Below are positions 2,042 to 23,673 of a stretch of 24,356 nucleotides of DNA, piece by piece. A program made the position numbers and the translations under genes. The stretch's first letter is position 1. Each line of letters starts with the position of its first letter. This DNA comes from Deltaproteobacteria bacterium ADurb.Bin026 (lineage in GTDB: Bacteria > Desulfobacterota > Syntrophorhabdia > Syntrophorhabdales > Syntrophorhabdaceae): NCBI GenBank assembly GCA_002071245.1, contig MWEV01000010.1:1-24356 (forward strand), read 5' to 3'. The notes under the pieces are model-generated. The model was not told the DNA's origin. It did no database searches and saw nothing but the letters and a program-made list of their open reading frames with translations.

Positions 2042-2044
2042 TTT

Positions 2045-3247: not shown

Positions 3248-3252
3248 AACTT

Positions 3253-3966: not shown

Positions 3967-3975
3967 TAAGTAATA

Positions 3976-6552
3976 TTGGGTTTTTTAAAAATATTAAAAG
4001 ATTGTATAGGGGCATTTTCAGACAAGACTGACTACTACAGAATATGCTGGTATTTTGCAGGGCTAGCCCTGTTTTTTTATATCGATAAGATTTTTATGGG
4101 GTCTTTTGCCTTTGTAAGACTTCATGATGTTTTTGACTCCGATTACTCAAGGTATAAAATACTCGGAGAACTTTTTTATAAAAATGGTTTTTTTTCATGG
4201 TACCCTCACTATCTGGGGGGTCTGCCAGCATATGCATGGCACCACACACCCTTTTATATTTTATGTCTTGTGTCTTTGGTTGTGCCGTTATGGTTTATAT
4301 ATTCATTTCTTTGCTGTATGTGGATGTTTTTGGCAGGTTTTGGATTATTCAGGCTATTGAATGAATACCTGGGCATACCCAGGAAGTTTTCATTAGTTGC
4401 AGGATTGTTTTATTCAACAATTGTACAAATTCAACCGAATAGTATACCGCAGGTTGTATTCAATTATGCATTCCCTGTTTTCCTTGTATGGTTCCTCGAT
4501 CTGTTTAAAAATGTTTCAATAAGAAAGAAGATCATTCCTCTTGCAGGGCTCAACTTTTTATTATTGATTTCTTATCCTGTCCTGACTCTTCCTTATTATC
4601 CCTTGTTACATGTTGCAATGATTTTGTTTGTAGTGGATCCGGATAAATTACCTGCAGAAAGAAAATCGCTTGTAATAAAATCGTGTATTGTTTGGTTTGG
4701 ATACATCTTGATGAATCTCCCTGTTCTGTATAGCCTTTGGGATTATATACCATTGGCGGTGAAAAAAGTGGACCAAACTGTCCATATACAAACAAGTTTT
4801 GCAGGGATGCTTAAAGATTTTGTAGCACAGTCGTTTAACGGATTTTCGGAGGTAATGTCGAGAACACTGATGTTGATCCCGTTTGTAAGCGGCATTGCAT
4901 TTTTTTCTGTATCAAAAAATTTAAGGAATCTTTATATTCTATGGTTTGCAGTTTTTTTTGTAACAACATTTTTCACATCGAAAATATCTCTTATTTTAAA
5001 AGACAGTATTTTTTTAAAGATGGATCTCAGCCATTTCTCATGGACACTGCCGTTTTTGTCAATGTTAATTGCGTCTTTGAGTATCAATATGATAATCGAA
5101 AAGCAGAAGTCTTCTGCTTCATATAATATATTTTTGGTAACTGCTTTTCTTGTTTTATGTGCTATTGTGTTTTTATTGAATCTGCCGGTCTATTTGTTTA
5201 TAGCAAACATATATATCCTGATTATCATTATGTTGTTTTTAAGGTGTGTAAAATATGGAAAGCATCTTGACCATGCGATAAATATTGTACAGACAATAGC
5301 TCCAAAAAAGTTTATGCTGTGTTTGGTCATATCGATTTTTGCTCAAATAGCTATCATTTTGTTATTTTTTAAACCAAGGGCATATATGCTTATCAACATG
5401 GCGGTGTTTGTTGTTCCGATTGTGATGATGTTTGTCGTTGTGTCAGGACATATTAAGCATGGCATAAAAATGGCGAAGCCTGCGTGGATAAGGACGTTTT
5501 ACATTGCGACCCTGGTAAGCCTGTGTATGTTTTTGGTTTTACAGATAAGGATTGTGAGATTCAACGGCATGGAACCCGAGAAGTATTCATACAAACTTCT
5601 CGAAAGTTATACGGTACTCGATAAGATCAAGAAGAAGGAAACCGGTATTTACAGGATTGGAGCGGTCGGTGGCATACCTCACGTGGTGTTGGCTAACCAT
5701 GGGTTTGAGAGTATCGACGGACGGGGACCTATATCCAACCGTTATTTCAAGGATTATTTCAAATTGATCGTAAAGCCGCAACTGGCAGAAAAGAAGGATG
5801 AGTTGTTTTTCGATTCGTATTGGTATAATCTCTTTTTGACATGCGGAAGCGGTGATCAGAATTTTAACTATCCTCTTTTATCCCTTGCAAACGTAAAGTA
5901 CCTTGTATCATCCGATAACAGCCAGAAGGCTAAAGATTTATCTGATGTTGTAATGAAAGAGAGGAAATATCTTAACAATCTGTTTTACGATATTTTAAAT
6001 CCACCATTTGTCGGTAGTGACAACATGCTCAATATAAATGTATATAGGTTAAAAGAAACATTCGAAAGATGGTATCTTGCCAGTACACCGGTGATTGCGG
6101 TAAACCGCGACCAGACTCTGGATTTGCTCCTATCACAATCCGGCGACACCTTAAGAAATAATGTTATCTATGCACAGCCTGATATTGAAAAAGGTTATTT
6201 TGATAAATATGCACCGAAGAACGATCCAAGCGGAAAGATCGAATTATTGTCATATTCACCGGACAGGATAGTTTTGAATACAACAATTGCTGCACCAGCA
6301 ATAATGGTTATAACAAACAATTATGATAAAAGATGGGCCGCATATATCAACGGCGTAAAGACAAAGATTGTAAGGGCAAACCATGCCTTTCAATCCTTTC
6401 TGTTGGATAAAGCAGGGTCTCATAAGGTCGACATAAGATTTGAAGATAAATTGCTTTGGATGCTTCATTATGTGATGATATTCGGTTTTATTCTTTTAAA
6501 CGTTACATTGCTTCTAAATAGGTCAATTATGCCTTCAGGATCAGGAAAATAG
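3976..6552 (+). CDS. YfhO-like polytopic membrane protein (putative GT-C glycosyltransferase), copy 1
   Basis: 858 aa with many hydrophobic segments over about the first 530 aa. The early loop has acidic HDVFDSD and WYPHYLGGLP. The soluble C-terminal domain has YSPDRIVL...NNYDKRWAAYING...RANHAFQS, as in YfhO-family C-termini, and a final TM helix. The TTG start is uncertain. Confidence 0.72.
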   Translation: MGFLKILKDCIGAFSDKTDYYRICWYFAGLALFFYIDKIFMGSFAFVRLHDVFDSDYSRYKILGELFYKNGFFSWYPHYLGGLPAYAWHHTPFYILCLVSLVVPLWFIYSFLCCMWMFLAGFGLFRLLNEYLGIPRKFSLVAGLFYSTIVQIQPNSIPQVVFNYAFPVFLVWFLDLFKNVSIRKKIIPLAGLNFLLLISYPVLTLPYYPLLHVAMILFVVDPDKLPAERKSLVIKSCIVWFGYILMNLPVLYSLWDYIPLAVKKVDQTVHIQTSFAGMLKDFVAQSFNGFSEVMSRTLMLIPFVSGIAFFSVSKNLRNLYILWFAVFFVTTFFTSKISLILKDSIFLKMDLSHFSWTLPFLSMLIASLSINMIIEKQKSSASYNIFLVTAFLVLCAIVFLLNLPVYLFIANIYILIIIMLFLRCVKYGKHLDHAINIVQTIAPKKFMLCLVISIFAQIAIILLFFKPRAYMLINMAVFVVPIVMMFVVVSGHIKHGIKMAKPAWIRTFYIATLVSLCMFLVLQIRIVRFNGMEPEKYSYKLLESYTVLDKIKKKETGIYRIGAVGGIPHVVLANHGFESIDGRGPISNRYFKDYFKLIVKPQLAEKKDELFFDSYWYNLFLTCGSGDQNFNYPLLSLANVKYLVSSDNSQKAKDLSDVVMKERKYLNNLFYDILNPPFVGSDNMLNINVYRLKETFERWYLASTPVIAVNRDQTLDLLLSQSGDTLRNNVIYAQPDIEKGYFDKYAPKNDPSGKIELLSYSPDRIVLNTTIAAPAIMVITNNYDKRWAAYINGVKTKIVRANHAFQSFLLDKAGSHKVDIRFEDKLLWMLHYVMIFGFILLNVTLLLNRSIMPSGSGK

Positions 6553-6573
6553 GACGGATAATTTAAAATAAAG

Positions 6574-7248
6574 ATGAAATACGGTAAGCTTATTGCGATA
6601 GCAGTGCTTTTTCTAATTATGGTAGCCCTGTTCTTTTTGAGAAGACACGGTTACGTTGCCCCTGATAAAATATTTGAGTTCTTGAGGCTACATCCAATAT
6701 TGGCACCTTTTTTATTTATAATTATTTTTATGCTGCTGACGCTGTTTTTAGTGCCTACGCTTCCTTTAAACCTTGGCGCCGGTTTTTTATGGGGCCCAGT
6801 ATGGGGTACTGTTCTTACAATAATAGGCGCGACATTAGGGGCAATATGTTCATTTGGATTGTCAAGGTATCTTATAAAAGATTATTGCGGGGAAAGATTC
6901 CGTCATGCAATGTGGCTGCACCTCAAAGATTATATATCAAAATACAACTGGAAGGTAATCGCATTTGTGCGGATTGATCCGGTTTTTGCATCAGGACCTC
7001 TAAACTATTTTTTTGGTGTTACCTCGATAGCCTTTTCCACTTTTATCTGGTCTACCGCCCTTTTTTTTATACCACCAGCGTTTCTTTTTGCTTCTATAGG
7101 CAGTATCTTTGGATGGGTGGCAATCCAGGGGAATGCCTCCGATCTCATACGCAGCATCATTCTAGTTAGTGCCGGTGCCACGATTGTATGTCTGTTTCTT
7201 TTCCTTGCCAGGAAATGGGCGAGGAAGAATAGCAAGATTGATATATAG
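6574..7248 (+). CDS. DedA-superfamily TVP38/TMEM64 (VTT domain) membrane protein
   Basis: VPTLPLNLGAGFLWGPVWGTVLTIIGATLGAICSFGLSRY and RIDPVFASGPLNYFFGVTSIAFSTF...IP match the YdjX/TVP38 pattern. Confidence 0.85.
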   Translation: MKYGKLIAIAVLFLIMVALFFLRRHGYVAPDKIFEFLRLHPILAPFLFIIIFMLLTLFLVPTLPLNLGAGFLWGPVWGTVLTIIGATLGAICSFGLSRYLIKDYCGERFRHAMWLHLKDYISKYNWKVIAFVRIDPVFASGPLNYFFGVTSIAFSTFIWSTALFFIPPAFLFASIGSIFGWVAIQGNASDLIRSIILVSAGATIVCLFLFLARKWARKNSKIDI

Positions 7249-7258
7249 AGAGGAGCAT

Positions 7259-7963
7259 TTGAAGACAACATTATTAGTGATGACGCTTAACGAAATTGAT
7301 GGAATGAAGGCCATTATGCCGCGCATTAAAAGAGAATGGTTCGATCAGATAATCGTTGTCGACGGTGGTTCTACTGATGGGACAATAGAATATGCCAAGC
7401 AAGAAGGATATTCTTTTTATGTTCAAAAAAGGCAAGGCTTCAGGCATGCTTATTTTGAAGTTATGCCTCTTGTAGAGGGTGATGTAATAGTTACATTCAG
7501 TCCTGACGGTAATTCTATCCCGGAATTAATCCCTGAATTGATCGAGAAGATGAGGGAAGGGTACGATATGGTGATCGTGTCCCGATATCTCGGCAAAGCA
7601 AAAAGCGATGACGATGATTTACTTACAGGGTTCGGCAATTGGCTTTTTACCAAAACGGTGAATATCCTTTTCAAGGGTGACTATACAGATGCAATGGTCA
7701 TCTATAGAGCTTACAAAAAAAGCCTTATATATGATTTGGAGCTCGATAAGGACAAATGGTATACAACGCCTGAAAAACTTTTTTCGTGCAAGATAAGCTG
7801 GGAGCCTATGCTCTCTGCCAGGGCCGCAAAAAGAAAGCTAAGAATAGCTGAGATTCCCGGCGACGAACCACCTCGAATAGGTGGCGAGAGAAAGTTGCTT
7901 ATATGGCGTTGGGGCGCATCATACTATTTCCAGTTCTGGCGAGATTTTTTTATCTGGCACTGA
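7259..7963 (+). CDS. GT2 glycosyltransferase, DPM1/polyprenol-phosphate glycosyltransferase-like
   Basis: TLLVMTLNE, IIVVDGGSTDGT, FSPDGNSIPELIP, YDMVIVSRY and EIPGDEPPRIGGERK. The start is moved from the track's 7169, which overlaps the DedA gene, to TTG 7259 after GAGAGGAG (7248-7255). Confidence 0.85.
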   Translation: MKTTLLVMTLNEIDGMKAIMPRIKREWFDQIIVVDGGSTDGTIEYAKQEGYSFYVQKRQGFRHAYFEVMPLVEGDVIVTFSPDGNSIPELIPELIEKMREGYDMVIVSRYLGKAKSDDDDLLTGFGNWLFTKTVNILFKGDYTDAMVIYRAYKKSLIYDLELDKDKWYTTPEKLFSCKISWEPMLSARAAKRKLRIAEIPGDEPPRIGGERKLLIWRWGASYYFQFWRDFFIWH

Positions 7964-7997
7964 ATATGTCGTCAAATAATAAATAATGGATTGAACA

Positions 7998-9821
7998 ATG
8001 TGCGGGATTGCAGGATATATTGGAAAACAGATTCCCAATGAATCAATGATAGCGGAAACGCTACGCCTTATGAGGAACAGGGGCCCGGATCACCAGGGTT
8101 ATGTTTTGTTCAAAGATAATTCAGTCAATGTAGCACTACTTCATGCACGTTTGAAGATTATAGATCTCGATGAAAGGTCAAATCAGCCTTTTTCAATAGG
8201 TGATTCAACGGTTATTTATAATGGGGAAATATATAATTATATTGAGTTAAGGGAAAAACTCGAAAAGAAAGGCATAATCTTTCATACAAAATCGGACACA
8301 GAAGTTCTCCTCCAGTATTACATAAACTTTGGGGAGAGATGTGTTGATTTTTTTGAAGGAATGTGGGCGTTTGCGGTATATGATAAAAACAAAAAACATC
8401 TATTCATCTCAAGGGATCGTTTTGCGGAGAAGCCAGTGTTCTATTGTCAATCTCCTGATGGATTTTTCTTTGCATCTGAGGTCAAGTTCCTGCAGGAGTT
8501 GACAGGCAGAAAATTCGATGTGAATGTGAGCCATATTGCAAGGTATCTTGTGAACGGATATAAATCGCTATACAAAACGGAGGAGACCTTTTTCAAGGAC
8601 ATACATGAAATTCCATATTCTACGAACGCTGTAATCGACAGCAGGCTAAAACCTAAATTCTATCGTTACTGGCAGCCGCAATGCGAAATTAACGAAAATA
8701 TGAAACTGGAGGAAGCGATAGAAGGGGTAAGACAAAGGCTTCTCGAAAGTATGCGCATTCGTCTTCGTTCTGATGTTCCACTTGCTTTTTGCCTGAGCGG
8801 CGGCATTGATTCTGCATCTTTGACGTCGATAGCTTCCAAAGAATTTGGATATAATGTTGCGACATTCTCTATCATAGACAAGGATGAGCGTTATAACGAA
8901 TATGATAACATAATGGCAACAGTAAACGATTTAGGGTGTGAACACACGCTGATAGAGATATCGCCGGATAATTTTTTTGAAAGGCTCGAAACGCTTATCG
9001 GTTATCATGATTCCCCTCTTTCCACAATATCTTATTATGTGCATTCATTTCTATCCGAGGCTATTTCAAAATCGGGTTATAGGGTGGCTGTTTCTGGCAC
9101 GGCTGCGGATGAATTGTTTACGGGTTATTACGATCATTTCAACCTTCATCTTTATGAGGTACAAAAACAGCCTGATTTTGACAAGTATTTGAACGATTGG
9201 AACAGGCATATCAGTGACATAGTTAGAAATCCATATCTACAGAACCCTAAATTGTATTTTAAAGACCCAGACATAAGGAAGCACATTTACTTGAATAACG
9301 ATCTTTTTGCCGGGTGTATTAATATCGAATTCATGGAGCAGTTTGATGAAACACAGTATTGTAGTTCGTTGTTGCGTAACCGCATGATGAACGAACTGTT
9401 CCATGAGGCAATCCCCGTTATCCTGCACGAAGATGACCTCAACTCCATGCGTTATTCGGTCGAAAACAGAAGCCCTTTTCTTGATCTTCCTTTGTTTGAA
9501 TTTGCATATTCGATTCCAAGCAGGTATCTGATTAGCAACGGATTCGGAAAGTTCATTCTGAGAGAAGCAGTCAAAGGCATACTTAATGAAAAAGTAAGGC
9601 AGGACAGGAAGAAGATAGGATTCAATGCATCGATCAATTCATTGATTGATTTCAACAATCAGGAAAGCCGTAATTATCTTCTGGGTGAAAGCCCGGTATT
9701 TGATATTGTAAATAAAAAAAAGGTATCAGATATGATGAGGATCAACCCTATGCCTAACAGTTACAGCAAGTTCATTTTTAATTTTATCAATACAAAGATT
9801 TTTCTCGAGAAGAACAGGTAA
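7998..9821 (+). CDS. asnB: AsnB-family glutamine-hydrolysing amidotransferase, copy 1 (probably acting on a glycan)
   Basis: Ntn N-terminus MCGIAG, RGPD, HARLKIID, NGEIYNY, SDTEV, PP-loop LSGGIDS, AADELFTGY and ENRSPFLD. Confidence 0.9.
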   Translation: MCGIAGYIGKQIPNESMIAETLRLMRNRGPDHQGYVLFKDNSVNVALLHARLKIIDLDERSNQPFSIGDSTVIYNGEIYNYIELREKLEKKGIIFHTKSDTEVLLQYYINFGERCVDFFEGMWAFAVYDKNKKHLFISRDRFAEKPVFYCQSPDGFFFASEVKFLQELTGRKFDVNVSHIARYLVNGYKSLYKTEETFFKDIHEIPYSTNAVIDSRLKPKFYRYWQPQCEINENMKLEEAIEGVRQRLLESMRIRLRSDVPLAFCLSGGIDSASLTSIASKEFGYNVATFSIIDKDERYNEYDNIMATVNDLGCEHTLIEISPDNFFERLETLIGYHDSPLSTISYYVHSFLSEAISKSGYRVAVSGTAADELFTGYYDHFNLHLYEVQKQPDFDKYLNDWNRHISDIVRNPYLQNPKLYFKDPDIRKHIYLNNDLFAGCINIEFMEQFDETQYCSSLLRNRMMNELFHEAIPVILHEDDLNSMRYSVENRSPFLDLPLFEFAYSIPSRYLISNGFGKFILREAVKGILNEKVRQDRKKIGFNASINSLIDFNNQESRNYLLGESPVFDIVNKKKVSDMMRINPMPNSYSKFIFNFINTKIFLEKNR

Positions 9822-9835
9822 CGACAATATTTATC

Positions 9836-9842
9836 AGGAGGT
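9836..9842 (+). promoter_or_regulatory. Shine-Dalgarno site for the carbamoyltransferase TTG start
   Basis: AGGAGGT lies 6 nt upstream of TTG 9849. Confidence 0.7.
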
Positions 9843-9848
9843 AGAGTT

Positions 9849-11642: not shown

Positions 11643-11647
11643 CGCAT

Positions 11648-12769: not shown

Positions 12770-12770
12770 T

Positions 12771-13115: not shown

Positions 13116-13121
13116 AGTCAA

Positions 13122-15629
13122 TTGTTCAGTATGGGTTTAATGTTCACTGACAAATTGTTGTCATGTTGTGATGCAAAACAGGCGAAGCGGGTTTCAGTTA
13201 ACAATCTGTTTGCATTTGTTTGCTATGTGTTTGTTGGATTAATCTATCTTACACCCGTTTTTTTCTTTGGGAAAAGCTTATTGATTGATGCCTGGGACCA
13301 TGTCCCTACATATGTAAGAATGGTTGACAGGGCCCAATGGCTATCCCAACTCATGATTCCTTTATGGGATCCTAAAACCTTCTCTGGACTGTCATTTGTC
13401 GACAGTGTTCCTACTACACACATTCTTAATTTACAGCCATGGATAATGGCCTTTGCTGGTAATCATACTGGCTACGCGATCTGCATTTTTATGTTCATAA
13501 CATTTGGTGCATATGGCACCTATCTGCTCTGCTATCGGAAACTGCAGATCAATTGGGGATTGTCATTATGCGCAGGCAGCACTGTAGTGTTTGGTCCATT
13601 TATCGGCAATGCGTATTCGAGCGTCTTTGTCTTTTTTCCGTTTATAAGCTTCTACTTCTATAATTTCATGAACATTTTTGAGAAAAGCAGTATCCGTAGA
13701 ATATTGTATAACTCAATACTTGCTTCTTTTCCTGTTGTGCTGTGCATGTATACCCAGGAGCCAAGATTCATTGAATTCATTTTTTACAGCAGTATCCTTT
13801 ATTTTATTACCATGATCTTTGTAAATAACGACAGGAAGGCCTTGATCTTCAAGCAGACCGTTCTTTTTGCTCTTTTTGCAGGCGTTTTATGCGTCCTTAT
13901 GTCAGGACCCATGATATTTCCTATGGTTCTGGAGGTGTTTAAGCAGCAAAGGATTGGAGCAGGTGAGATACTTCCACGAATTATCTCTTTTCCACCATGG
14001 CTGTATCTTTTAAATGTTGTTGTGGGCAATTTATATCCTCTAAATCTTACGGTATTACATGATACCCTCAGAGTCAAATTATTAGGGAGTTATTTTACGC
14101 TCTATTTTGAGTTTGTTCATATACTGTTTTATGCGGTGCTCTTTGTGTCTATCAAGTTTCTCCATAAATTCAGTACAGTGGAAAAAAGTATAATTCTAAG
14201 CGCTATAGTTTTGAAAATAATTATTGCAGTGCATGCTTATGTGCCAGGATTTATGTATTTTTGGACACTGATATTCAAAACAGGACGATTTCTGGAAAAC
14301 GATACATCATTTTTCTTTAGCGCTCTTATGGTATTTATTGTGCTAAACAAGATTATAAAAGGGGATATTACTTTGGAAGGTAAGCTGCACACTTTTTCAA
14401 GCTGGCTTATCAGTATTCAAATATTGATTTCGGTTGTATTAATTGTTTTTCTGATTTACCTGAGATTCTTTTTTGATGTTAATATGTTGCTTGAAGTTGC
14501 CGGAATGCAGCATTATCTGAGTTATCTCGGCGACGTAAACCTGTTGATGGATTCTTTCAAAAGCAGATTTCCTTATCTGATACCAGGATTGGTTTGCATA
14601 ATTATTCAATTATCGATTTTCAGAGAATTAATGAGGAACAAAAGTATTGCACGGTACAAAATCAGCCTTTTCATGGTAATGCTTTTTTGTACACCGTTAT
14701 TTCTATCGAAGGCTTATTGGCCGTTTAACAATATCGTCGAAAGGGATAAGATAGAAACACCCGACAGACAGTTTTTATCATCCCTAAACATTCTTGACAG
14801 AGTAAACAACGTTGATCATGATGCAAACAAACTTAGCGAGGGTATGAAGACAAAAATCATATCTATTCACTCAAATGAGTCTTTGGAATGGGCAATAAAA
14901 TGCTATCCACCGGCTATGATGTCGTTTATACATCATTTTATACCCGTTGATATGTATAAGTATTTCAATTATATGTACAAAGACGAGAAAAGCATAAAAA
15001 GCCCCTATCAGCGTTTTTATTTCTATCCTCAAGACAACAATCTCTTCCATTTGCTTGGAATAAACTATTTCTTTTCCGAATTGCCTGTCCATGACAGCCC
15101 TTTTGAAGCGTCTGGAAGATTTGGCAATTACTTTGTATATAAGAATCCGCACGCTTTTCCAAGGTTCTATTTTGCAGATTCAGTCTTTTTTATTGAAGAC
15201 AATGATTCTATTTTAGGTAAGTTGTATTATACGCCAATTAAGAAGTTGAAAACAGAGGTGTTTGTGAACGCCGTGGGCAGAGGAGATGGGGAGCAGTTTT
15301 TCAGCAATAAAAAAAGGGATGTTTCCCTTATCATGTATTCTCCTAATAAAATCACCCTTAAAACCGAATCTCCCGGCAGGCAGTTTTTGGTGTTGACAGA
15401 TACTTTTGACAAAAGATGGAATGCATATATCGATAAAAAACAAATCAATACATACAAGGCTAACTTTTTGTTCAGAGGTGTTATGATTCCTCCTGGTATC
15501 CATACGGTCGAGTTCCAGTACTGTTATCCTGAATTCAAGATTTATGTTTTAATTGCTGTTTTGACTTTTTTATCATGTATATCGATTGTCTGTATTGTTA
15601 ATAAATATAACGATGTTCCAACAGGATGA
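13122..15629 (+). CDS. YfhO-like polytopic membrane protein (putative GT-C glycosyltransferase), copy 2
   Basis: 835 aa and highly hydrophobic. The early loop has DAWD...LWDPKTFSGLSF. The C-terminal domain has YSPNKITL...DTFDKRWNAYID...KANFLFRGVMIPPGIHTVEFQY and a final TM helix. The start could be TTG 13122 or ATG 13131. Confidence 0.75.
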   Translation: MFSMGLMFTDKLLSCCDAKQAKRVSVNNLFAFVCYVFVGLIYLTPVFFFGKSLLIDAWDHVPTYVRMVDRAQWLSQLMIPLWDPKTFSGLSFVDSVPTTHILNLQPWIMAFAGNHTGYAICIFMFITFGAYGTYLLCYRKLQINWGLSLCAGSTVVFGPFIGNAYSSVFVFFPFISFYFYNFMNIFEKSSIRRILYNSILASFPVVLCMYTQEPRFIEFIFYSSILYFITMIFVNNDRKALIFKQTVLFALFAGVLCVLMSGPMIFPMVLEVFKQQRIGAGEILPRIISFPPWLYLLNVVVGNLYPLNLTVLHDTLRVKLLGSYFTLYFEFVHILFYAVLFVSIKFLHKFSTVEKSIILSAIVLKIIIAVHAYVPGFMYFWTLIFKTGRFLENDTSFFFSALMVFIVLNKIIKGDITLEGKLHTFSSWLISIQILISVVLIVFLIYLRFFFDVNMLLEVAGMQHYLSYLGDVNLLMDSFKSRFPYLIPGLVCIIIQLSIFRELMRNKSIARYKISLFMVMLFCTPLFLSKAYWPFNNIVERDKIETPDRQFLSSLNILDRVNNVDHDANKLSEGMKTKIISIHSNESLEWAIKCYPPAMMSFIHHFIPVDMYKYFNYMYKDEKSIKSPYQRFYFYPQDNNLFHLLGINYFFSELPVHDSPFEASGRFGNYFVYKNPHAFPRFYFADSVFFIEDNDSILGKLYYTPIKKLKTEVFVNAVGRGDGEQFFSNKKRDVSLIMYSPNKITLKTESPGRQFLVLTDTFDKRWNAYIDKKQINTYKANFLFRGVMIPPGIHTVEFQYCYPEFKIYVLIAVLTFLSCISIVCIVNKYNDVPTG

Positions 15630-17071: not shown

Positions 17072-17847
17072 AATTGATGCTCCAATCATTGCTCCAACAC
17101 CCTTTGACGAAAGGGCTTAACATAGATGACCCGGATACTACACGGCTTAGACGCAGTATTATTCAAAAAAAAATTTTTTTAAAAAAGATTTATGAGGAAT
17201 GGTATACGCTTCTCGATGATTCCTTACCAGCAGATCTTGCTGGCAGTATATTGGAGCTTGGTTCGGGAGCAGGATTTTTAAAGGAGATCATGCCGGATGC
17301 TATTACTTCTGAAATATTTTATGTTTCAGGAATTGATGTAGTGCTGGATGGGTGTGAATTACCTTTCAAAGAGGAAACATTATCCGGGATCCTTATGACC
17401 AATGTGTTTCATCACCTGACGGATATAAAAAGTTTTTTGAAGGAATCTAACCGTTGCGTGAGACAAGGTGGTATTATTGCAATGATTGAGCCATGGGTAA
17501 CCCCTTTATCCATGTGGGTATACAGGAATCTTCATCATGAGCCTTGCGAAATGGAGTCAAAAGAATGGGGTTTTCAAGGGAAAGGCCCACTGTCGTGTGC
17601 AAACAGTGCTTTAGCCTGGATTATTTTCCAGCGTGACAAAAAAATATTTGAATCCGAGTTTCCACAGTGGAAGATCCAAAAAATAGAACCAATAATGCCT
17701 TTTCTCTACTTAATATCTGGCGGTATTTCTCTAAGAAGCCTCCAACCGGGATGGAGCTATTGTTTTTGGCGCCGAGCGGAAAATATTTTTAAACCTGTAT
17801 GGAACAAAATGGCTATGTTTGCGCTTATTATATTAAGGAAGAATTGA
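17068..17847 (+). CDS. Class I SAM-dependent methyltransferase
   Basis: ILELGSGAGFLK, LPFKEETLSGILMTNVFHHL and GGIIAMIEPW. The start is moved from 17005 to ATG 17068, which gives an ATGA overlap with the upstream stop. Confidence 0.85.
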   Translation: MKLMLQSLLQHPLTKGLNIDDPDTTRLRRSIIQKKIFLKKIYEEWYTLLDDSLPADLAGSILELGSGAGFLKEIMPDAITSEIFYVSGIDVVLDGCELPFKEETLSGILMTNVFHHLTDIKSFLKESNRCVRQGGIIAMIEPWVTPLSMWVYRNLHHEPCEMESKEWGFQGKGPLSCANSALAWIIFQRDKKIFESEFPQWKIQKIEPIMPFLYLISGGISLRSLQPGWSYCFWRRAENIFKPVWNKMAMFALIILRKN

Positions 17848-17851
17848 AAAT

Positions 17852-19297
17852 ATGCAGAATATCGTACTCATAAACCCTTTTCCAGTGGGGCAAGGTCTCA
17901 ATGATGCCACGGTGGAGCCGCCGCTCGGTTTATGCTATATAGCGGCAGTTCTTGAGAAAAACAATTATGTTTGTTGTATTATAGATGCAAATGTAGAGCG
18001 CCTGAGTAACCGAGACATCATAAACAGGATAAAAGAGAGTCCTTCTGTCATAGGAATTTATCTTAATTCATTTCTTTTCAGTGTGTCTAAAGATTTATGT
18101 GCGGAAATCAGGAAAAAATTTCCAGACAGCCTAATACTTCTTGGCGGTCCCCTGGCAAGTACTATTCCAGAGGTTCTTTTAGACGAGTTTTTATGTGACG
18201 GGATCATAAAGGGAGAGGGCGAATATGCTGTTCTCGGAATTATGAATAATATTTCGGCAGGTAAGCCAGCATTTGATGAGACAATATCCGGTGCTGTTTA
18301 TAAGCTGAAAGATGGCAACATTCGTTACAACGATTTGAAGAGGATTGTTGATCTGGATGAACTACCTTTTCCTGCATTGCATTTGTTGCCCAAATTAAAG
18401 GCATATAAGTCAAGAAGTCGTAAAAAACCGATAGCTCCAATTATAACAAGCCGAGGATGTCCTTATGGGTGCAGCTTTTGCAGTAAAGATATCTTTGGGA
18501 GAAAGATTACCATGCGAAGCGCAAATAATGTCCTGGACGAGATAGATTTTCTAGTTGCGAAGTACGGAGTCAAGCAAATAGATATTCTCGATGACAATTT
18601 TGCCCAGAACAGGCAGCGTCTTATCGATATCTTGGATGGTATAATTGTACGCAATTATAACCTTGCTATCAATCTTCAGTCAGGTGTGCGTATCGAGAAT
18701 ATCGATGAAGAAATATTGGTAAAGATGAAGCAAGCAGGGGTTTATAAGATTGCTTTTGGTGTTGAGACCGCTGATGAGAAGTTGCTTGAAATACATAATA
18801 AAAAGCTGAATCTGAAGAAAATGGAAGAGGTTGTCTCTTTATCTAAAAGGTTAGGTTTTTTAACTTACGGTTTTTTTATAATAGGTCTTTTGGGAGAAAC
18901 CGATAAAGAATTTGATCAGACGATGAGATTTGCCAAAAAAATTGATTTTGATGTAGCTAATTTTTGTATGGCCATACCATTTGTGGGTACCGATCTATTT
19001 AGAATGGTTGAGGCAGAGGGCAAGTTTTTGATCGACACAAGAAAAAATATTGACTCAGGGTTTTATGACGGTAGGGTATTCTATGAATACGGAAATCAAA
19101 AGGGGGAGGATATTCTTGCAAGGTATAATCGTGCGTATAAAGAGTTCTATTCAATAGGAAAAAAGATAAAGGTTTTTCTTGCAATACGCTCTTTCAGTGA
19201 ATTGGCCTGGCTTATTGATGCAGTCTGGTTTGTTATTAAAGGTATGATAAAAAAACGTCAAGCAAAAGTTAAACCGGATATAAGGTCAAGGGATTGA
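17852..19297 (+). CDS. Cobalamin-binding radical SAM protein (class B-like), copy 1
   Basis: N-terminal B12-binding-type domain (PPLGLCYIAA...LLGGPLAS...KGEGE), CxxxCxxC in RGCPYGCSFC (18458-18481), DDNF, GVET and FIIGLLGET. Confidence 0.88.
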   Translation: MQNIVLINPFPVGQGLNDATVEPPLGLCYIAAVLEKNNYVCCIIDANVERLSNRDIINRIKESPSVIGIYLNSFLFSVSKDLCAEIRKKFPDSLILLGGPLASTIPEVLLDEFLCDGIIKGEGEYAVLGIMNNISAGKPAFDETISGAVYKLKDGNIRYNDLKRIVDLDELPFPALHLLPKLKAYKSRSRKKPIAPIITSRGCPYGCSFCSKDIFGRKITMRSANNVLDEIDFLVAKYGVKQIDILDDNFAQNRQRLIDILDGIIVRNYNLAINLQSGVRIENIDEEILVKMKQAGVYKIAFGVETADEKLLEIHNKKLNLKKMEEVVSLSKRLGFLTYGFFIIGLLGETDKEFDQTMRFAKKIDFDVANFCMAIPFVGTDLFRMVEAEGKFLIDTRKNIDSGFYDGRVFYEYGNQKGEDILARYNRAYKEFYSIGKKIKVFLAIRSFSELAWLIDAVWFVIKGMIKKRQAKVKPDIRSRD

Positions 19298-19300
19298 AGT

Positions 19301-20299
19301 TTGTTGAATAAAAAACATTGGCTTGCTATAGCTGGATTTGGCATCAGTCTTGTCTTTTTGTTTTTGATATTCTCCAGGATAGATTGGATTGTATTCCTTG
19401 ATACTCTGGAGAGGATATATGTGCCGTGGTTGTTTATTGCTTTAGCTTTTACCGCGATAGCAATTATGGGACGTGCATTGAGATGGAACCTGATTACCGG
19501 ATTAAAGATAAACCATTATCCTTATTTCTGGAGAGCTGCAAGCATAGGTTATCTCGGTAATATTATTTATCCGGTTAGGACTGGAGAAATTCTGCGTATA
19601 TACACAATAAGCCGTTCTGCAAAGATTCCTATGGGTCAGGCAATATCGAGCGTAATAGTGGACAGAATTGCTGATGGGATATCTATGGGATTATTTATGC
19701 TGTTGGTGATTGCTCAAAACAGTATTAATGTTCTGGGAGGTAAAGCGGTTACATGCGTAATTGGCTTATTTGCAGTTAGTACCATCTTAGTCGTAGTGTT
19801 TGTTCATTGGGGGGATAAGGGCCGGAACTTGATCATGGGGTTGGGAGACGGTAGATTCTATCGTCTGAAACAAAAACTACTTTTATGGTATAATCAGGCA
19901 TTTGAGGGCATGCAGGTTCTGCGCAACAAAAAGCGGATTGTTGCAATAGGTTTTTTGGGTATGTTTATTTTCATTATAGACTCAATAGTTGTGTGGTTTA
20001 TCATAATGGCTTTCGGATGGCAATTACCATTTTTTGCTGCAATAACCCTTGCCGTGTTTATTGAGGCAGGAAGTTCTTTGCCATCTGCACCAGGTTATAT
20101 TGGGATATTCCAGATTGCCTGTGTTCTTGCGTTAAAAATATATTCTGTTGATGAATCAAGCGCTGTGGCCTTTTCTGTTGTATTCCAACTGCTTACCTTT
20201 ACATTGATTTTTTTTCAGGGTATCTTGGCGGCTATTCAAAATTCTTTCGGAATATTATCTGCAATGAGAGTTGTGTCTAGAAAAGTACCAACTGAATGA
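19301..20299 (+). CDS. Stand-alone LPG-synthase transmembrane-domain (UPF0104/AglD2-like) protein; putative flippase
   Basis: All-membrane 332-aa protein with RALRWNLI, IGYLGNIIYPVRTGEILR, SVIVDRIADG and LPSAPGYIGIFQ. It has no MprF synthase domain. The start is TTG 19301 or 19304. Confidence 0.82.
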   Translation: MLNKKHWLAIAGFGISLVFLFLIFSRIDWIVFLDTLERIYVPWLFIALAFTAIAIMGRALRWNLITGLKINHYPYFWRAASIGYLGNIIYPVRTGEILRIYTISRSAKIPMGQAISSVIVDRIADGISMGLFMLLVIAQNSINVLGGKAVTCVIGLFAVSTILVVVFVHWGDKGRNLIMGLGDGRFYRLKQKLLLWYNQAFEGMQVLRNKKRIVAIGFLGMFIFIIDSIVVWFIIMAFGWQLPFFAAITLAVFIEAGSSLPSAPGYIGIFQIACVLALKIYSVDESSAVAFSVVFQLLTFTLIFFQGILAAIQNSFGILSAMRVVSRKVPTE

Positions 20300-20347
20300 C
20301 CTTTTAATATCTTTGACCAATTATATTTTGTATAGAGGCGATTGAAT

Positions 20348-22258
20348 ATGTGTGGAATAGTTGGGTTTTGCTCATATCGCAGTGACAAGTTGATTAGCAA
20401 AGACATGCTGTATACAATGACAAATTCTATGTCGCATAGAGGACCTGATGATTCAGGATGTGTCTTGTTGGAAAAAGAAAACAATATCTTTTACCCATTC
20501 AAAAACATGGCTGATGCGACCAAAATTGATAGTGGCATTGTGGGGCTTGGCCACAGGCGACTCAGTATCATTGATCTCTCAAATCGAGGACATCAGCCTA
20601 TGTCAGATGAGTTGAATCTTGTGTGGCTGATATATAACGGGGAGGTTTATAATTACATAGAATTAAGAGAAGAGCTTAAAGACAAAGGATACAAATTTAA
20701 TTCTACAACCGATTCCGAGGTTGTGTTGAAGAGCTATCTTGAATGGGGTGCTGATTGTTTTCGAAGATTCAACGGTATGTGGGCTATTGGTATCTATGAT
20801 ATGAGAACCGGCAACATTATACTGTCAAGGGATCGTTTTGGGAAGAAGCCCCTTTATTATTTTAAGAATAGTGATTTTTTGCTCTTTGCATCTGAGATTA
20901 AGGCAATATTGATGCATCCTGCTGTAAGCAAAGCGATGAATATGAAGAAAGTGGCTGATTATGCAGGTCGTCATTATAGATATGTTGATTGTGATAATGA
21001 GAGTTTTTTTAAAGATATATTTCAAGTTCCCAAAAGCACGTACATGATTTTTCAGAAAACAGGTGACATCTCAGTTCATAAATATTGGGATCTTAAAGAG
21101 GTGTTGTTGCTAAGAGTTGCAATGTCCGAAGGTGAAACTGTGGAACAGTTCAGGTGGCTTCTGAAAGATGCGGTGAAAATACGTCTGAGAAGCGATGTCC
21201 CTGTAGGATGTATGCTGAGTGGGGGGCTCGACTCTGGTTCGATAACGTGCGTTGCCGCCTCACAGAATAATGATTTTATAACATTCTCAGGAATCACAGG
21301 GGAAGGATATTATGATGAATCTGAATACATCAAAGAAGTCATAAAACATACCGGTGTTAAATCGAGATTTATTTACCCTGACGCTAGTGCATTGTTCCCC
21401 ACGCTAAAAGAGATGCTCAATTTTCATGACGAACCGGTATGCACGGTTACGTGGTATTTAAACTATATTATCACCAGGCAAATTTCTCAATATCATGTGC
21501 CCGTTGTTCTGACGGGACATGGCGGAGACGAACTACTTGCCGGCTATTGGGATCATTACCATTATAATTTCAGTGACATGCGGATGAATGGTGAAGACGA
21601 CTCTGGGGAATTTAACCTATGGCTGCATAATCATAATCGTCCGGTAAACGAATACGATAGAGAAAGGGAATATATAGAAAAACTTCGCAACAACAGCAAC
21701 ATGGAAGTGGATAAATACTCACAATATCTTTCTGCCCTTTCGCCTGGTATGCTTCAATATCCAATTAGCAGCATTTTTTATTCCCCATTCAAAGGGGATC
21801 TTGTACGACGTTTATATCTTGAACTGTTTTATGAAACCGTTCCCCCTTCTTTGAGGGCTGAAGACCGCAACATGATGGCGTTTTCAATAGAGAACCGCTT
21901 ACCATTCCTGGATTACCGGCTGGCTGAATTTTCATTCAAGCTTGATAATAAATATAAAATCAGGGACGGCCTAGGAAAATGGCTTCTGCGTGAGGCAATG
22001 AAGGGGATTATGCCTGACAAGGTAAGGCTCAGGAAGGATAAAACGGGCTTTAATGCGCCTTTCGATGAATGGATAAGAAATGAAAACAAAAAACAACTTG
22101 AGGATGTTATTTCTTCAAAATCTTTTATGAATACAGAAGTATACTCAATCAACAGGGTAAAAGACCTTTTTGATGAACACATGAACGGCAGAAACCATTA
22201 TATGTTTTTCTGGCAATATATAAATCTTAATCTTTGGTATGAGCAGTATTTTAAATAA
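20348..22258 (+). CDS. asnB: AsnB-family glutamine-hydrolysing amidotransferase, copy 2
   Basis: The start is set at ATG 20348 to give the Ntn N-terminus MCGIVG. Motifs HRGPD, GHRRLSIID, NGEVYNY, RDRFGKKPLYY, LSGGLDS, GHGGDELLAGY and ENRLPFLD. Confidence 0.9.
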   Translation: MCGIVGFCSYRSDKLISKDMLYTMTNSMSHRGPDDSGCVLLEKENNIFYPFKNMADATKIDSGIVGLGHRRLSIIDLSNRGHQPMSDELNLVWLIYNGEVYNYIELREELKDKGYKFNSTTDSEVVLKSYLEWGADCFRRFNGMWAIGIYDMRTGNIILSRDRFGKKPLYYFKNSDFLLFASEIKAILMHPAVSKAMNMKKVADYAGRHYRYVDCDNESFFKDIFQVPKSTYMIFQKTGDISVHKYWDLKEVLLLRVAMSEGETVEQFRWLLKDAVKIRLRSDVPVGCMLSGGLDSGSITCVAASQNNDFITFSGITGEGYYDESEYIKEVIKHTGVKSRFIYPDASALFPTLKEMLNFHDEPVCTVTWYLNYIITRQISQYHVPVVLTGHGGDELLAGYWDHYHYNFSDMRMNGEDDSGEFNLWLHNHNRPVNEYDREREYIEKLRNNSNMEVDKYSQYLSALSPGMLQYPISSIFYSPFKGDLVRRLYLELFYETVPPSLRAEDRNMMAFSIENRLPFLDYRLAEFSFKLDNKYKIRDGLGKWLLREAMKGIMPDKVRLRKDKTGFNAPFDEWIRNENKKQLEDVISSKSFMNTEVYSINRVKDLFDEHMNGRNHYMFFWQYINLNLWYEQYFK

Positions 22259-22299
22259 CCTTGCATATGTACTCGGCAAGGGATTGGCAGGTCAGAGAA

Positions 22300-23673
22300 A
22301 TGAGAATTGTATTTATTAACCCTTCACTTCGTCCGGATGCAAAAAGGAGACAATTACCCGTTGGACTTGCATATATAATGACGGCAGTCAAAAGGGCTGG
22401 TTTTGAGTTTGATTTGATTGATATGGATATTAATGACCTGTCGATGCAGGACCTCGAGGATATGCTTGGCAAGACAATGTACGATGTCTATGCTTTTGGA
22501 TGTATAGTTACGGGGTTTAGGCTTGTGAGACAGATCGCAGAGATTATAAAAACCGTGAATCCAGTATCGACTGTTATTGCAGGAAATTCTGTAGCAACAT
22601 CAGTGCCGGAGATCCTTCTGCAAAACACAAAGGTTGATATAGCGGTGATGGGCGAAGGAGATGTCACCATTGTGGAATTACTCAAGGCTATTGAAAACGG
22701 TAAAAATATTGAAGAAGTTCAGGGAATTGCCTTTAATAGAAATGGAAAGATAGTTTATACGCTTAAGCGTTCTGTTATACCTAAACTTGATGATATAGGG
22801 TTTCCAGACTGGGAACTGTTTGATCTGGATAAATACTATGAGTATTCAACAGCGAATGTTAATGTTTTTTCCAGAGATAATGTCATCTCGTTCCCACTCA
22901 ATTCTGCCAGGGGATGTCCTTACAGATGTACATTCTGTTATCATGTGTTTAAAGGTGAAAAATACAGGAAATATTCCGCTGGAAAGATTGTCGAAGAAAT
23001 TAATAGACTCCACAATAAATACAACTGCGATTTTATATCTTTTTGGGATGAACTAACCTTTCCCAGCATCAAAAGCGTTGAATTACTGGTAGATGAATTG
23101 AACGGACTCGATTTTCAATTCAGTTGGGATGCCCCTGTTAGGGGGGATTTGTTGAAAATGGAGCATGTCGGATTGATACGAGAACTGAAAAACGTTGGCT
23201 GTGATAATCTGGCATTTTCACTAGAGAGTGCAAGCCCTGAAATACTTATTGCCATGAATAAGAAATTGCGTGTATCACAATTTGTTGAACAGGCAAAAGC
23301 CCTATGGGAAGGAGGCGTGACCCCACTAACCAGTATTGTCTTTGGGTATCCGCAGGAGACACCGGAAACGATAAAGCGTACTCTTGATGTATGTGAAGAA
23401 TGCAATATTTACCCGAGTGTAGGTTTTTTGCTGCCCTTACCAGGTACACCCATATATGAATGGGCAAAGGATAAAGGGCATATCAATGATGAAATTGAAT
23501 ATCTTTCAAGGATAGGTGATAGGCAGGATTTCCATATCAATCTGACGTCAATGTCGGATGATGAATTTGTTGACTTGGTAACAAATGGCCTGCAAGAGCT
23601 TGCGAGAAAATTGGGGCTTCAGCTCGAATCGGTTTACAAAACAGGTACTTATAAAGCGCCCGAAAAGAGATGA
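22300..23673 (+). CDS. Cobalamin-binding radical SAM protein (class B-like), copy 2
   Basis: MRIVFINP...LPVGLAYIMTAV...AGNSVAT...MGEGD (B12-binding-type domain), CxxxCxxC in RGCPYRCTFC (22915-22938), WDELT, SLES and IVFGYPQET. The start is moved from 22261 to ATG 22300. Confidence 0.88.
   Translation: MRIVFINPSLRPDAKRRQLPVGLAYIMTAVKRAGFEFDLIDMDINDLSMQDLEDMLGKTMYDVYAFGCIVTGFRLVRQIAEIIKTVNPVSTVIAGNSVATSVPEILLQNTKVDIAVMGEGDVTIVELLKAIENGKNIEEVQGIAFNRNGKIVYTLKRSVIPKLDDIGFPDWELFDLDKYYEYSTANVNVFSRDNVISFPLNSARGCPYRCTFCYHVFKGEKYRKYSAGKIVEEINRLHNKYNCDFISFWDELTFPSIKSVELLVDELNGLDFQFSWDAPVRGDLLKMEHVGLIRELKNVGCDNLAFSLESASPEILIAMNKKLRVSQFVEQAKALWEGGVTPLTSIVFGYPQETPETIKRTLDVCEECNIYPSVGFLLPLPGTPIYEWAKDKGHINDEIEYLSRIGDRQDFHINLTSMSDDEFVDLVTNGLQELARKLGLQLESVYKTGTYKAPEKR

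Follow-up and report, generated by a model that had tools for sequence, protein, structure and literature searches.

The 24,356-bp stretch of DNA analysed here ("the window") is a complete contig (C10; GenBank MWEV01000010.1) of the metagenome-assembled genome (MAG) of Deltaproteobacteria bacterium ADurb.Bin026, an uncultured two-membrane Desulfobacterota (Syntrophorhabdaceae) bacterium of anaerobic digesters and sludge; the MAG comprises 1.85 Mb in 307 contigs and is 87% complete. For three proteins from other contigs, cluster mates with at least 90% identity bear the names Syntrophorhabdaceae or Syntrophorhabdus. Fifteen genes of the window, all on the + strand and separated by gaps of 1–42 bp or by short overlaps, lie where a first-pass annotation, made from the sequence alone, had placed them, and the gene content it assigned to two consecutive blocks (3976–13115 and 13122–23673) is borne out by Pfam and NCBIfam domains. 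The two blocks begin with the large membrane proteins P1 and P2, respectively, and each contains a family 2 glycosyltransferase (GT2). We read these genes, with confidence somewhat better than even, as parts of two side-branch modules that operate via polyprenyl monophosphate sugars within a superlocus for a glycan that probably contains a nonulosonic acid and is most likely exported by Wzx. The central components are the following:

3976..6552, + strand: P1, GT-C glycosyltransferase of YfhO/DUF6044 architecture, 858 amino acids (aa), assigned from fold and family members
6574..7248, + strand: DedA/VTT-domain membrane protein (VTT_dom, 69 bits against a cut-off of 33.9)
7259..7963, + strand: GT2a, DPM1/ArnC-like GT2 (GT2 domain, 51 bits)
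13122..15629, + strand: P2, YfhO-family GT-C glycosyltransferase, assigned from PF09586 and fold; elsewhere the start is called 9 nucleotides (nt) later, giving 832 aa
15626..17071, + strand: MT-GT2, methyltransferase-GT2 fusion (Glycos_transf_2, 82 bits, plus Methyltransf_25/11)
19301..20299, + strand: membrane protein of family PF03706 (LPG_synthase_TM; MprF-flippase-like, PplT/AglD C-domain family; 134 bits against 33.4)

The assignment of P1 and P2 as GT-C enzymes with YfhO architecture is supported by structural modelling. AlphaFold (AF2) models built on family alignments reach a predicted local distance difference score (pLDDT) of 77.6 and a predicted template-modelling score (pTM) of 0.82 for P1, and 75.9 and 0.81 for P2. 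In both, about 13 transmembrane (TM) helices form an N-terminal bundle, which is followed by a large beta-rich domain on the outer side and a TM helix at the C-terminus. Of the Swiss-Prot models, Bacillus subtilis YfhO matches either protein best (P1: E 4.8e-12, template-modelling score 0.55, residues 17–856; P2: E 3.9e-14, 0.59, residues 28–834), at a sequence identity of 11–12%; the next matches are YkoS, llmg_1573, AftD and ArnT. In a Foldseek-independent fold search (VIA-align) against 48,161 solved chains, the top 11 matches of P1 and the top 12 of P2 are all GT-C enzymes, AftD ranking first in both (Z 12.7 and 14.8, respectively); these top matches include AftD, AglB, ArnT, AftA, Pmt1/2/4, DPY19, STT3, PglB, ALG9/12 and EmbA. 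Foldseek against the PDB alone returns weak GT-C matches for P1 (E 1.4e-3). In the first outer loop, acidic residues are invariant in each family (D37 and D51 in P1; D59 and D83 in P2). The GT-C/YfhO-like nature of both large proteins, as proposed in the first-pass annotation, is thus upheld, with the restriction that the label "YfhO-like" is earned by P2 through PF09586 at its C-terminus only and by P1 through its fold and family members, its own score being below the cut-off.

Close homologues are few: 17 for P1 and 15 for P2 among 5.8 billion proteins. Relatives of both carry PF09586 (YfhO), those of P1 also PF19510. The P1-family profile retrieves 513 cluster representatives at an E-value limit of 1e-30, a number that rises to 17,334 at 1e-10, and YfhO-like C-terminal domains occur in 90 of the 401 Desulfobacterota genomes sampled. 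By these counts, the YfhO-like superfamily is common in two-membrane bacteria and the P1 and P2 subfamilies are small. The host genome contains a third YfhO-like gene (PF09586, 61.8 bits) on the 2.4-kb contig C173 (locus L009). In a deltaproteobacterial MAG (L031, 7039–18434), a tandem array of three P1-like GT-C genes precedes a fourth gene that is YfhO-like and more distant; on the opposite strand, adjoining these genes, the MAG has orthologues of GT2a, a B12-binding radical SAM enzyme and the E1-like DegT enzyme described below.

Both GT2 genes lie close to their neighbours. The gap between P1 and DedA is 21 nt and that between DedA and GT2a 10 nt, while the start of MT-GT2 overlaps the P2 stop by 4 nt; for GT2a, gene calls on near-identical contigs place the start at 7259 or 7238, not at 7169, with 7259 being probable. 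The best NCBIfam models for both GT2s are AglJ, haloarchaeal dolichyl-phosphate-hexose (Dol-P-hexose) transferase, ArnC, PgfS and PpgS (for MT-GT2, AglJ with 104 and ArnC with 54 bits), and their best solved relatives are the dolichyl-phosphate mannose synthase (DPMS) of Pyrococcus furiosus (PfDPMS, 5mlz), ArnC and GtrB (for MT-GT2, DPMS with 62 and ArnC with 54 bits). At the sequence level, the earlier designation as DPM1-like enzymes therefore holds. TM segments are lacking in both proteins, and the C-terminal tail of each is aromatic and amphipathic. In the GT2a family, including the orthologues in loci L013, L025, L026 and L031, the conserved motif S/T-P-D-G-N replaces D-x-D (D-A-D in DPMS; the motif is also present in ArnC and GtrB). 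Both GT2s are closest to polyprenyl-phosphate GT2s, and from this affinity we infer that they use polyprenyl phosphate. Among the solved relatives of the methyltransferase domain in the fusion are phosphoethanolamine N-methyltransferases and a cyclopropane-fatty-acyl-phospholipid synthase.

Two smaller membrane proteins come into question as flippases or recycling proteins. A GtrA-type flippase (PF04138) has no match in any gene of the window or in the whole genome at its 87% completeness, and the small open reading frame at the end of block 1 (114 aa) was rejected as a GtrA-like flippase, as it has no hydrophobic or TM segment. The DedA protein has about six hydrophobic segments and scores 19 bits against the UptA equivalog (cut-off 250). 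DedA proteins return free undecaprenyl phosphate (Und-P) to the inner leaflet and are not known to flip a loaded sugar; pathways of the aminoarabinose (Ara4N) and teichoic acid type release Und-P outside, and DedA/DUF368 proteins flip it back (PMC12826051). Because DedA proteins are known for this return step, a recycling role fits better than forward flipping, and the DedA protein of the window more likely recycles polyprenyl phosphate. It stays a candidate translocase, for the return of polyprenyl phosphate or, less likely, for the loaded sugar, as its listing as a flippase candidate in the first-pass annotation would have it; the gene is not kept beside P1 relatives. In the phylum, this DedA protein is most closely related to fusions of 560–640 aa in which DedA is C-terminal to a Fer4-CCG (4Fe-4S, heterodisulfide-reductase-like) domain (L100, 1151–4114; L102, 1859–4494; L103, 1456–3378), and a small GT2 adjoins in two of these three loci. 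At one of them the fusion also adjoins a DUF2064/CofC-like gene.

The PF03706 protein (TIGR00374, 77 bits against 43.2; HpnL, 32 bits, under cut-off) has about eight to nine hydrophobic segments and is the flippase candidate for module 2. PF03706 genes adjoin a GT2 in L013, L078 and L097, whereas L098 holds a close homologue without any glycan context; a search for PF03706-GT2 fusions, as Rosetta-stone evidence, returned 65 single-domain proteins and no fusion. In archaea, a neighbourhood of PF03706, AglD-like GT2 and PMT/STT3-like genes has been described, with a flippase role predicted for PF03706 (Makarova et al. 2015, PMC5898192).

Upstream of P1, and thus outside the first block as originally drawn, lie genes for a heptose nucleotide route:

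2–532, + strand: GmhA (NCBIfam gmhA, 186 bits)
498–1052, + strand: GmhB-type phosphatase (NCBIfam GmhB, 165 bits)
1049–2041, + strand: HddA-like GHMP kinase (NCBIfam HddA, 147 bits, under the equivalog cut-off)
2045..3247, + strand: DegT-fold pyridoxal phosphate (PLP) enzyme of the E1/RfbH/ColD type (best NCBIfam model RfbH, 285 bits)
3253..3966, + strand: HddC-like sugar-1-phosphate guanylyltransferase (NTP_transferase, 131 bits; HddC, 178 bits, under cut-off)

The GmhA, GmhB and HddA-like genes would provide the first steps to guanosine diphosphate (GDP)-alpha-heptose. The DegT-fold enzyme has a His where the catalytic Lys is usual, followed by a Cys-rich insert, like the E1/RfbH/ColD 3-dehydrases, and 3-deoxygenation of a GDP-sugar is its probable function. 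Together with two GDP-mannose-dehydratase-like genes further upstream, this E1-like enzyme suggests a 3,6-dideoxy-heptose-type product.

The association of these genes with P1 was followed in 18 P1-family loci from GTDB genomes (Magnetominusculus, other Nitrospirota, Elusimicrobiota, a deltaproteobacterial MAG and Omnitrophota), which were searched with the window proteins. An orthologue of the HddA-like kinase (about 400 bits) adjoins the P1 relative in ten of them, usually with HddC-like and DegT-fold genes alongside; in L025 and L031, DegT-fold orthologues with 560–615 bits adjoin the relatives of P1 and GT2a. Orthologues of GT2a (210–430 bits) are encoded within 10 kb of P1 relatives in L013, L025, L026 and L031 (the nearest available loci are among these four), and are immediately adjacent in L025 and L026. 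L013 displays the order GHMP kinase, GT2, PF03706, P1 relative and, directly following, an orthologue of radical SAM enzyme 2 (441 bits), while in L093 a different YfhO-like gene adjoins GmhB, GmhA, HddC, HddA and a GT2. More generally, of 20 YfhO-like genes whose flanks were sampled across the phylum, 8 have a recognizable GT2 homologue at a distance of up to 10 kb. The remaining genes of block 1 behave differently:

7998–9821, + strand: AsnB1 (Pfam/NCBIfam)
9849–11642, + strand: NodU-type carbamoyltransferase (Carbam_trans_N and C)
11648–12769, + strand: WbuX-type N-acetyl-sugar amidotransferase (TIGR03573, 293 bits against a cut-off of 203)
12771–13115, + strand: soluble 114-aa protein (no family; unnamed clusters only)

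None of these four genes, nor DedA, is found in any of the 18 P1-family loci. Because the HddA-, HddC- and DegT-like genes and GT2a are kept with P1 and the block 1 tailoring genes are not, module 1 is best drawn as 2–7963, not as 3976–13115. Its cargo is likely a deoxygenated GDP-heptose derivative, and GT2a is a probable polyprenyl-phosphate (heptose-type) sugar synthase.

Block 2 holds, in addition to P2, MT-GT2 and the PF03706 protein, genes for a methyltransferase, two B12-binding radical SAM enzymes and an AsnB:

17005–17847 (start about 17017), + strand: separate class-I methyltransferase (Pfam)
17852..19297, + strand: B12-binding radical SAM enzyme 1, probable methylase (B12-binding and Radical_SAM)
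20342–22258, + strand: AsnB2 (Pfam/NCBIfam domains)
22261–23673, + strand: B12-binding radical SAM enzyme 2 (Pfam/NCBIfam domains)

Four further loci of the P2 family were compared (L045, L053, L054 and the P0023 locus). All four contain a B12-binding radical SAM gene; that of L045, at a distance of two genes from the P2 relative, is orthologous to radical SAM enzyme 1 (544 bits). Three (L045, L054 and P0023) encode one or more class-I methyltransferases, three have a nonulosonic-acid context (NeuB or CMP-transferase genes; CMP, cytidine monophosphate), and two have a GT2 near the P2 relative (L053 and P0023, not L045 or L054). In the P0023 locus, an AsnB gene comes after the B12-binding radical SAM gene that follows the P2 relative. 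A related arrangement is found in another Desulfobacterota family (L078; G074:C18:17500-37499), where 20 kb hold four GT-C genes (two YfhO-like and two PMT_2), two B12-binding radical SAM genes, a MiaB-like radical SAM gene, a carbamoyltransferase and a GT2/PF03706 pair; adjoining the YfhO genes is a GT2-methyltransferase fusion with a domain order reversed relative to that of the window. Because the fusion exists in both domain orders, it can be argued that methyltransferase and GT2 act on the same molecule. A class-I methyltransferase and a B12-binding radical SAM enzyme travel with the P2 family and probably modify the module 2 sugar. Hence, of the idea that each block has its own tailoring enzymes, the part concerning block 2 stands, while that concerning block 1 (AsnB1, carbamoyltransferase and WbuX, not found with P1) is not supported. 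The co-occurrence of GT2, flippase candidate and GT-C as a module, which the first-pass annotation asked to be checked, is seen in part: the combination of GT2, PF03706 and GT-C recurs in relatives, but a GT2 is not present in all P1 and P2 loci and DedA is not kept.

Next to the P2 homologue of L045, a metagenome relative, the glycan locus stops, and genes for an MmeI-type restriction-modification enzyme, an integrase and a RecD2-like helicase come next (5642–12949), which suggests a mobile or variable border.

Block 2 also permits a different view, in which its GT2 and PF03706 protein serve to synthesize and translocate a membrane glycolipid (based on diacylglycerol, phosphatidylglycerol or a hopanoid; compare GpgSDF, HexSDF and HpnI/J/L), with the methyltransferases and B12-binding radical SAM enzymes modifying the head group and P2 not being the consumer. 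PF03706 is the family to which the flippase domain of MprF belongs, and GpgF is predicted to flip glucosaminyl-phosphatidylglycerol (GlcN-PG) (PMC12713373; bioRxiv 10.1101/2022.03.11.483950); the two radical SAM enzymes score against NCBIfam HpnJ (159 bits for enzyme 1 and 128 bits for enzyme 2, both under cut-off), to which the HpnL score of the PF03706 protein and the phospholipid-related solved relatives of the methyltransferase domain can be added. GpgS, however, is a family 4 glycosyltransferase (GT4) and not a DPM1-like GT2 (PMC12713373), MT-GT2 is translationally coupled to P2, GT2 and PF03706 genes directly adjoin GT-C genes in L013 and L078 as well as in archaea (PMC5898192), and all surrounding genes are glycan genes. 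We regard a glycolipid product as quite improbable, and retain the side-branch module with P2 as the consumer.

Within that reading, a bolder proposal is that the B12-binding radical SAM enzymes and methyltransferases encoded with P1- and P2-type genes, one of these methyltransferases being fused to the GT2 itself, have the polyprenyl-phosphate-linked form of the sugar as their substrate. The cell would then assemble C- and O-methylated sugars, including deoxy-heptoses, on the lipid carrier and deliver them outside via YfhO-like enzymes, with a carrier-recycling DedA protein in the same module. This is tentative and rather doubtful; if true, it would constitute a lipid-linked sugar-tailoring pathway with radical chemistry, of a kind not described in the literature searched.

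Near-identical metagenome contigs extend the window on both sides to a surface-glycan superlocus of about 57 kb on one strand, with the window in its middle. Pieces of it are confirmed in the host genome, contig C244 with a 100% match that overlaps the start of C10, and contigs C8 and C210 with 99%. The genes beyond the modules are as follows:

Upstream, after a MarR gene: nonulosonic-acid pathway with CMP-sugar synthetase, oxidoreductase, DegT, dehydratase, GNAT and NeuB
Upstream, further genes: the two GDP-mannose-dehydratase-like genes, a split transketolase and a B12-binding radical SAM gene
23670..24356, + strand: N-terminal 229 of 590 aa of an LIC12162-family protein, cut by the contig end (PF27859, precomputed on the full gene); no TM segment in these 229 aa
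Downstream, first genes: remainder of the LIC12162-family gene, then Wzx (Polysacc_synt) and a second aldolase and CMP-transferase set
Downstream, later genes: another B12-binding radical SAM gene, DegT, GT2, epimerase, GT4 and an AlgX-like protein
Downstream, end: PglC-like Bac_transf, PglD-like acetyltransferase and a third GT-C (PMT_2)

Wzx lies about 2 kb past the window end (Polysacc_synt, 31.6 bits against a cut-off of 28.2) and is also present on contig C8 with 99% identity. The absence of wzx recorded in the first-pass annotation is, thus, true of the window and explained by it being a whole contig that ends about 2 kb before Wzx. The same annotation had named a flanking conventional Wzx/Wzy pathway without modular conservation as evidence against its proposal; of this, part was found: Wzx is present, no Wzy Pfam match was obtained among the called genes of the superlocus, and modular conservation is seen in some of the loci compared. 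The PglC-like initiating enzyme was found in a near-identical contig and is not confirmed in the host assembly.

Several further features of the superlocus are recorded here. It holds at least four B12-binding radical SAM genes (L056, 13663–15132; window, 17852–19297 and 22261–23673; L055, 11807–13285). Downstream of Wzx, a second possible ulosonic-acid route (L055, 4962–11773; a near-identical contig, partly C8) comprises an HMGL-like enzyme, a Fer4/LdpA_C protein, a HAD phosphatase, an HpcH/HpaI aldolase and a CMP-transferase, and is followed by an unnamed 590-aa protein, equal in size to the LIC12162-family protein that follows radical SAM enzyme 2. At the superlocus end, the order Bac_transf/PglD-like/PMT_2 (L055, 18841–21659) resembles bacillosamine-initiated glycan or protein glycosylation loci.

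Such a locus raises the question of whether P1 and/or P2 serve the main glycan directly, as polymerase, ligase or oligosaccharyltransferase acting on undecaprenyl-diphosphate oligosaccharides of the Wzx-exported unit, with the GT2s and tailoring enzymes working on the repeat unit in the cytoplasm. The superlocus has Wzx and a PglC-like initiator, no match to Wzy or WaaL Pfam families among its called genes, and two Leloir glycosyltransferases only, as against a very large tailoring set; in addition, the fold scores of AglB, PglB and STT3 nearly equal that of ArnT. On the other hand, both proteins find their best full-length match in the fold of YfhO, a member of a monosaccharide transferase family; GT2s of the DPM1/ArnC type are adjacent or translationally coupled; Wzy_C-type genes are present on other contigs of the genome; and P1 relatives often occur outside any Wzx locus, accompanied by kinase, nucleotidyltransferase and dehydrase only. 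Taken together, an oligosaccharide-transferring role appears unlikely, and the transfer of single sugars from polyprenyl monophosphate is preferred.

The wider locus also bears on how the two blocks relate to each other. They had been taken for two self-contained parallel lines, each with its own GT2, flippase (DedA and PF03706, respectively) and private tailoring enzymes, delivering an amidated/carbamoylated and a methylated/amidated sugar. The symmetry of the blocks speaks for this, each having a single GT-C, DPM1-like GT2, polytopic membrane protein and AsnB, as does L078, which clusters a carbamoyltransferase, GT2s, PF03706, B12-binding radical SAM enzymes and several GT-Cs. The conservation pattern in P1-family loci, which leaves out AsnB1, the carbamoyltransferase, WbuX and DedA and retains the HddA-, HddC- and DegT-like genes from outside the block, speaks against it, as do the unbroken succession of the blocks with gaps of 1–42 nt, the larger Wzx locus whose NeuB pathway gives WbuX and AsnB a conventional substrate, and the established role of DedA in Und-P return (PMC12826051). 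Two self-contained lines are consequently improbable; the blocks adjoin each other within a single operon-like array of about 57 kb, a superlocus that also includes Wzx, the PglC-like transferase, Leloir glycosyltransferases and the third GT-C.

A scan for promoters and terminators gave nothing usable and no terminator-like site at the block junction (13115/13122). Two digester "metatranscriptome" runs contain the whole region as 31-kb contigs of uniform depth, as would be expected if DNA were present in the library, and two random-primed RNA runs contain short, low-depth contigs scattered over both blocks, also across the junction; the latter are compatible with low transcription, and are no proof of transcription or of a single transcript. 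The paired genes of the window share limited identity (GT2s 24%, AsnBs 31%, radical SAM enzymes 25%; P1 and P2 28% over a C-terminal stretch of 150 aa only), by which they are judged anciently diverged, not recent duplicates.

As for the block 1 tailoring genes, the more likely target of AsnB1, the carbamoyltransferase, WbuX and the 114-aa protein is not the donor of P1 but the CMP-activated nonulosonic acid of the NeuB pathway. In the P0023 locus, NeuB is followed by an AsnB gene, a 372-aa gene and a 120-aa gene, in the same order as in the window.

From the folds, family affinities, gene order, cross-genome linkage and wider locus, all of which are observed, we infer the substrates, flipping steps, acceptor and order of tailoring of the side-branch modules. 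The main glycan, probably with nonulosonic acid, would most likely be started on undecaprenyl diphosphate by the PglC-like transferase and exported by Wzx. In module 1, GmhA, GmhB, the HddA-like kinase and the HddC-like transferase would provide GDP-heptose, to be deoxygenated by the E1-like dehydrase; the soluble GT2a would move the sugar to polyprenyl phosphate at the inner face of the membrane, and, after flipping of the lipid-linked sugar, P1 would transfer it to a periplasmic acceptor, freeing polyprenyl phosphate, which the adjacent DedA protein most likely returns. In module 2, MT-GT2 would load a sugar on polyprenyl phosphate and probably methylate it, the PF03706 protein would flip the lipid-linked sugar, and P2 would transfer it outside.

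Several observations weigh against this scheme. Neither GT2 attains any NCBIfam equivalog cut-off, and GT2a keeps the second Asp of the D-x-D motif only, the first being missing. P1 itself has no Pfam match above cut-off, its C-terminus reaching 21.4 bits against PF09586 (cut-off 28.5), and the PF09586 match of P2 (39.6 bits, gathering threshold 28.5) covers residues 730–811 only, about 80 residues. Magnetominusculus P1 loci have no GT2 nearby. No flippase candidate is kept with the P1 family, and DedA occurs only at this locus among those sampled. PF03706 proteins have also been tied to the flipping of phospholipids and glycolipids (PMC12713373; bioRxiv 10.1101/2022.03.11.483950). Regarding the tailoring of the nonulosonic acid, the 372-aa and 120-aa genes of the P0023 locus correspond to WbuX and the 114-aa protein by size and order only, and the assignment of the carbamoyltransferase is weak because L078 has such an enzyme among its GT-Cs.

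The window probably encodes a variant of three-component extracytoplasmic glycosylation, and the trio of PF03706, AglD-like GT2 and GT-C has already been predicted in archaea. In CsbB/GtcA/YfhO and Listeria GtlA/GtlB, by the same logic as proposed here, a sugar is loaded on the C55 carrier phosphate (C55-P), flipped and transferred outside (PMC5836110, PMC7389260). The window resembles CsbB/GtcA/YfhO of B. subtilis and GtlA/GtlB, which act in teichoic acid glycosylation, in that a DPM1/GtrB-like GT2 is encoded beside a GT-C of YfhO architecture. It differs from these systems in its two-membrane host without teichoic acids, a genome without a match to GtrA/GtcA-type flippases, GT2s that lack TM segments and of which one is fused to a methyltransferase, and a module 1 donor that is probably a heptose derivative.

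With GtrA/GtrB/GtrC and the GT136 systems of Citrobacter, the window would share the decoration of an exported glycan (Wzx or ABC route) by a periplasmic GT-C from an undecaprenyl-phosphate sugar in a Gram-negative organism. The GT-Cs of the Gtr and Citrobacter systems can carry an extra outer sugar-binding domain, and a variable flippase is a further common point (PMC11127046); in the Citrobacter pentofuranose systems, the flippase family is variable (SMR or MATE), and the lipid-linked donor can serve as a substrate for auxiliary enzymes (Kelly et al. 2024, PMC11127046). In contrast, the flippase candidates of the window are PF03706 and DedA, its GT-Cs are YfhO/DUF6044-like and not GT136, its donors would come from a GDP-heptose route or an MT-GT2 fusion and not from UDP-glucose (UDP-Glc) or phosphoribosyl pyrophosphate (PRPP), and B12-binding radical SAM enzymes are companions. 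To the ArnC/ArnEF/ArnT pathway, it is linked by ArnC among the best GT2 relatives and ArnT among the top GT-C fold matches; the Arn pathway releases Und-P outside and depends on its recycling by DedA-type proteins (PMC12826051). There are, however, no ArnA/B/D-type genes, and the DedA gene, whose product falls outside the UptA equivalog, is part of the module here.

The archaeal neighbourhood of AglD-like GT2, PF03706 (arCOG00899) and PMT/STT3 proteins contains the same family trio as block 2 (PMC5898192). It employs dolichol and is often fused as AglD, whereas the window is bacterial and has separate genes, a YfhO-type GT-C, the methyltransferase fusion and B12-binding radical SAM enzymes; flipping is predicted in both. 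Finally, GpgSDF (GlcN-PG of Pseudomonas aeruginosa) and HexSDF (a glycolipid of Clostridioides difficile) likewise encode a glycosyltransferase together with a PF03706/YbhN-type predicted flippase (PMC12713373), but they use a GT4 and a deacetylase on glycerolipids and have no GT-C, while the GT2s of the window are of the polyprenyl-phosphate type and coupled to a GT-C.

Glucose, GlcNAc, galactose, aminoarabinose and pentofuranoses are the sugars for which extracytoplasmic three-component glycosylation has been elucidated; in the literature searched, no paper joins GDP-heptose with polyprenyl-phosphate donors or GT-C enzymes. The present locus departs from known systems by the lack of a GtrA-type flippase, a probable heptose donor, the MT-GT2 fusion, B12-binding radical SAM companions and a DedA protein within the module. 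Together with its relatives, which are found in Nitrospirota, Elusimicrobiota and Desulfobacterota, it offers testable enzyme sets, namely the GDP-heptose route with DPM1-like GT2 and GT-C, the combination of MT-GT2, PF03706 and YfhO-type GT-C, and the B12-binding radical SAM companions. These bear on the nature of polyprenyl-phosphate-sugar flippases where GtrA is absent, on DedA proteins as dedicated recyclers, and on the roles of B12-binding radical SAM enzymes in the glycan loci of anaerobes. As the host is an abundant uncultured syntroph of digesters, it may be speculated that its surface glycan is relevant to how granules form and how phages recognize the cell.

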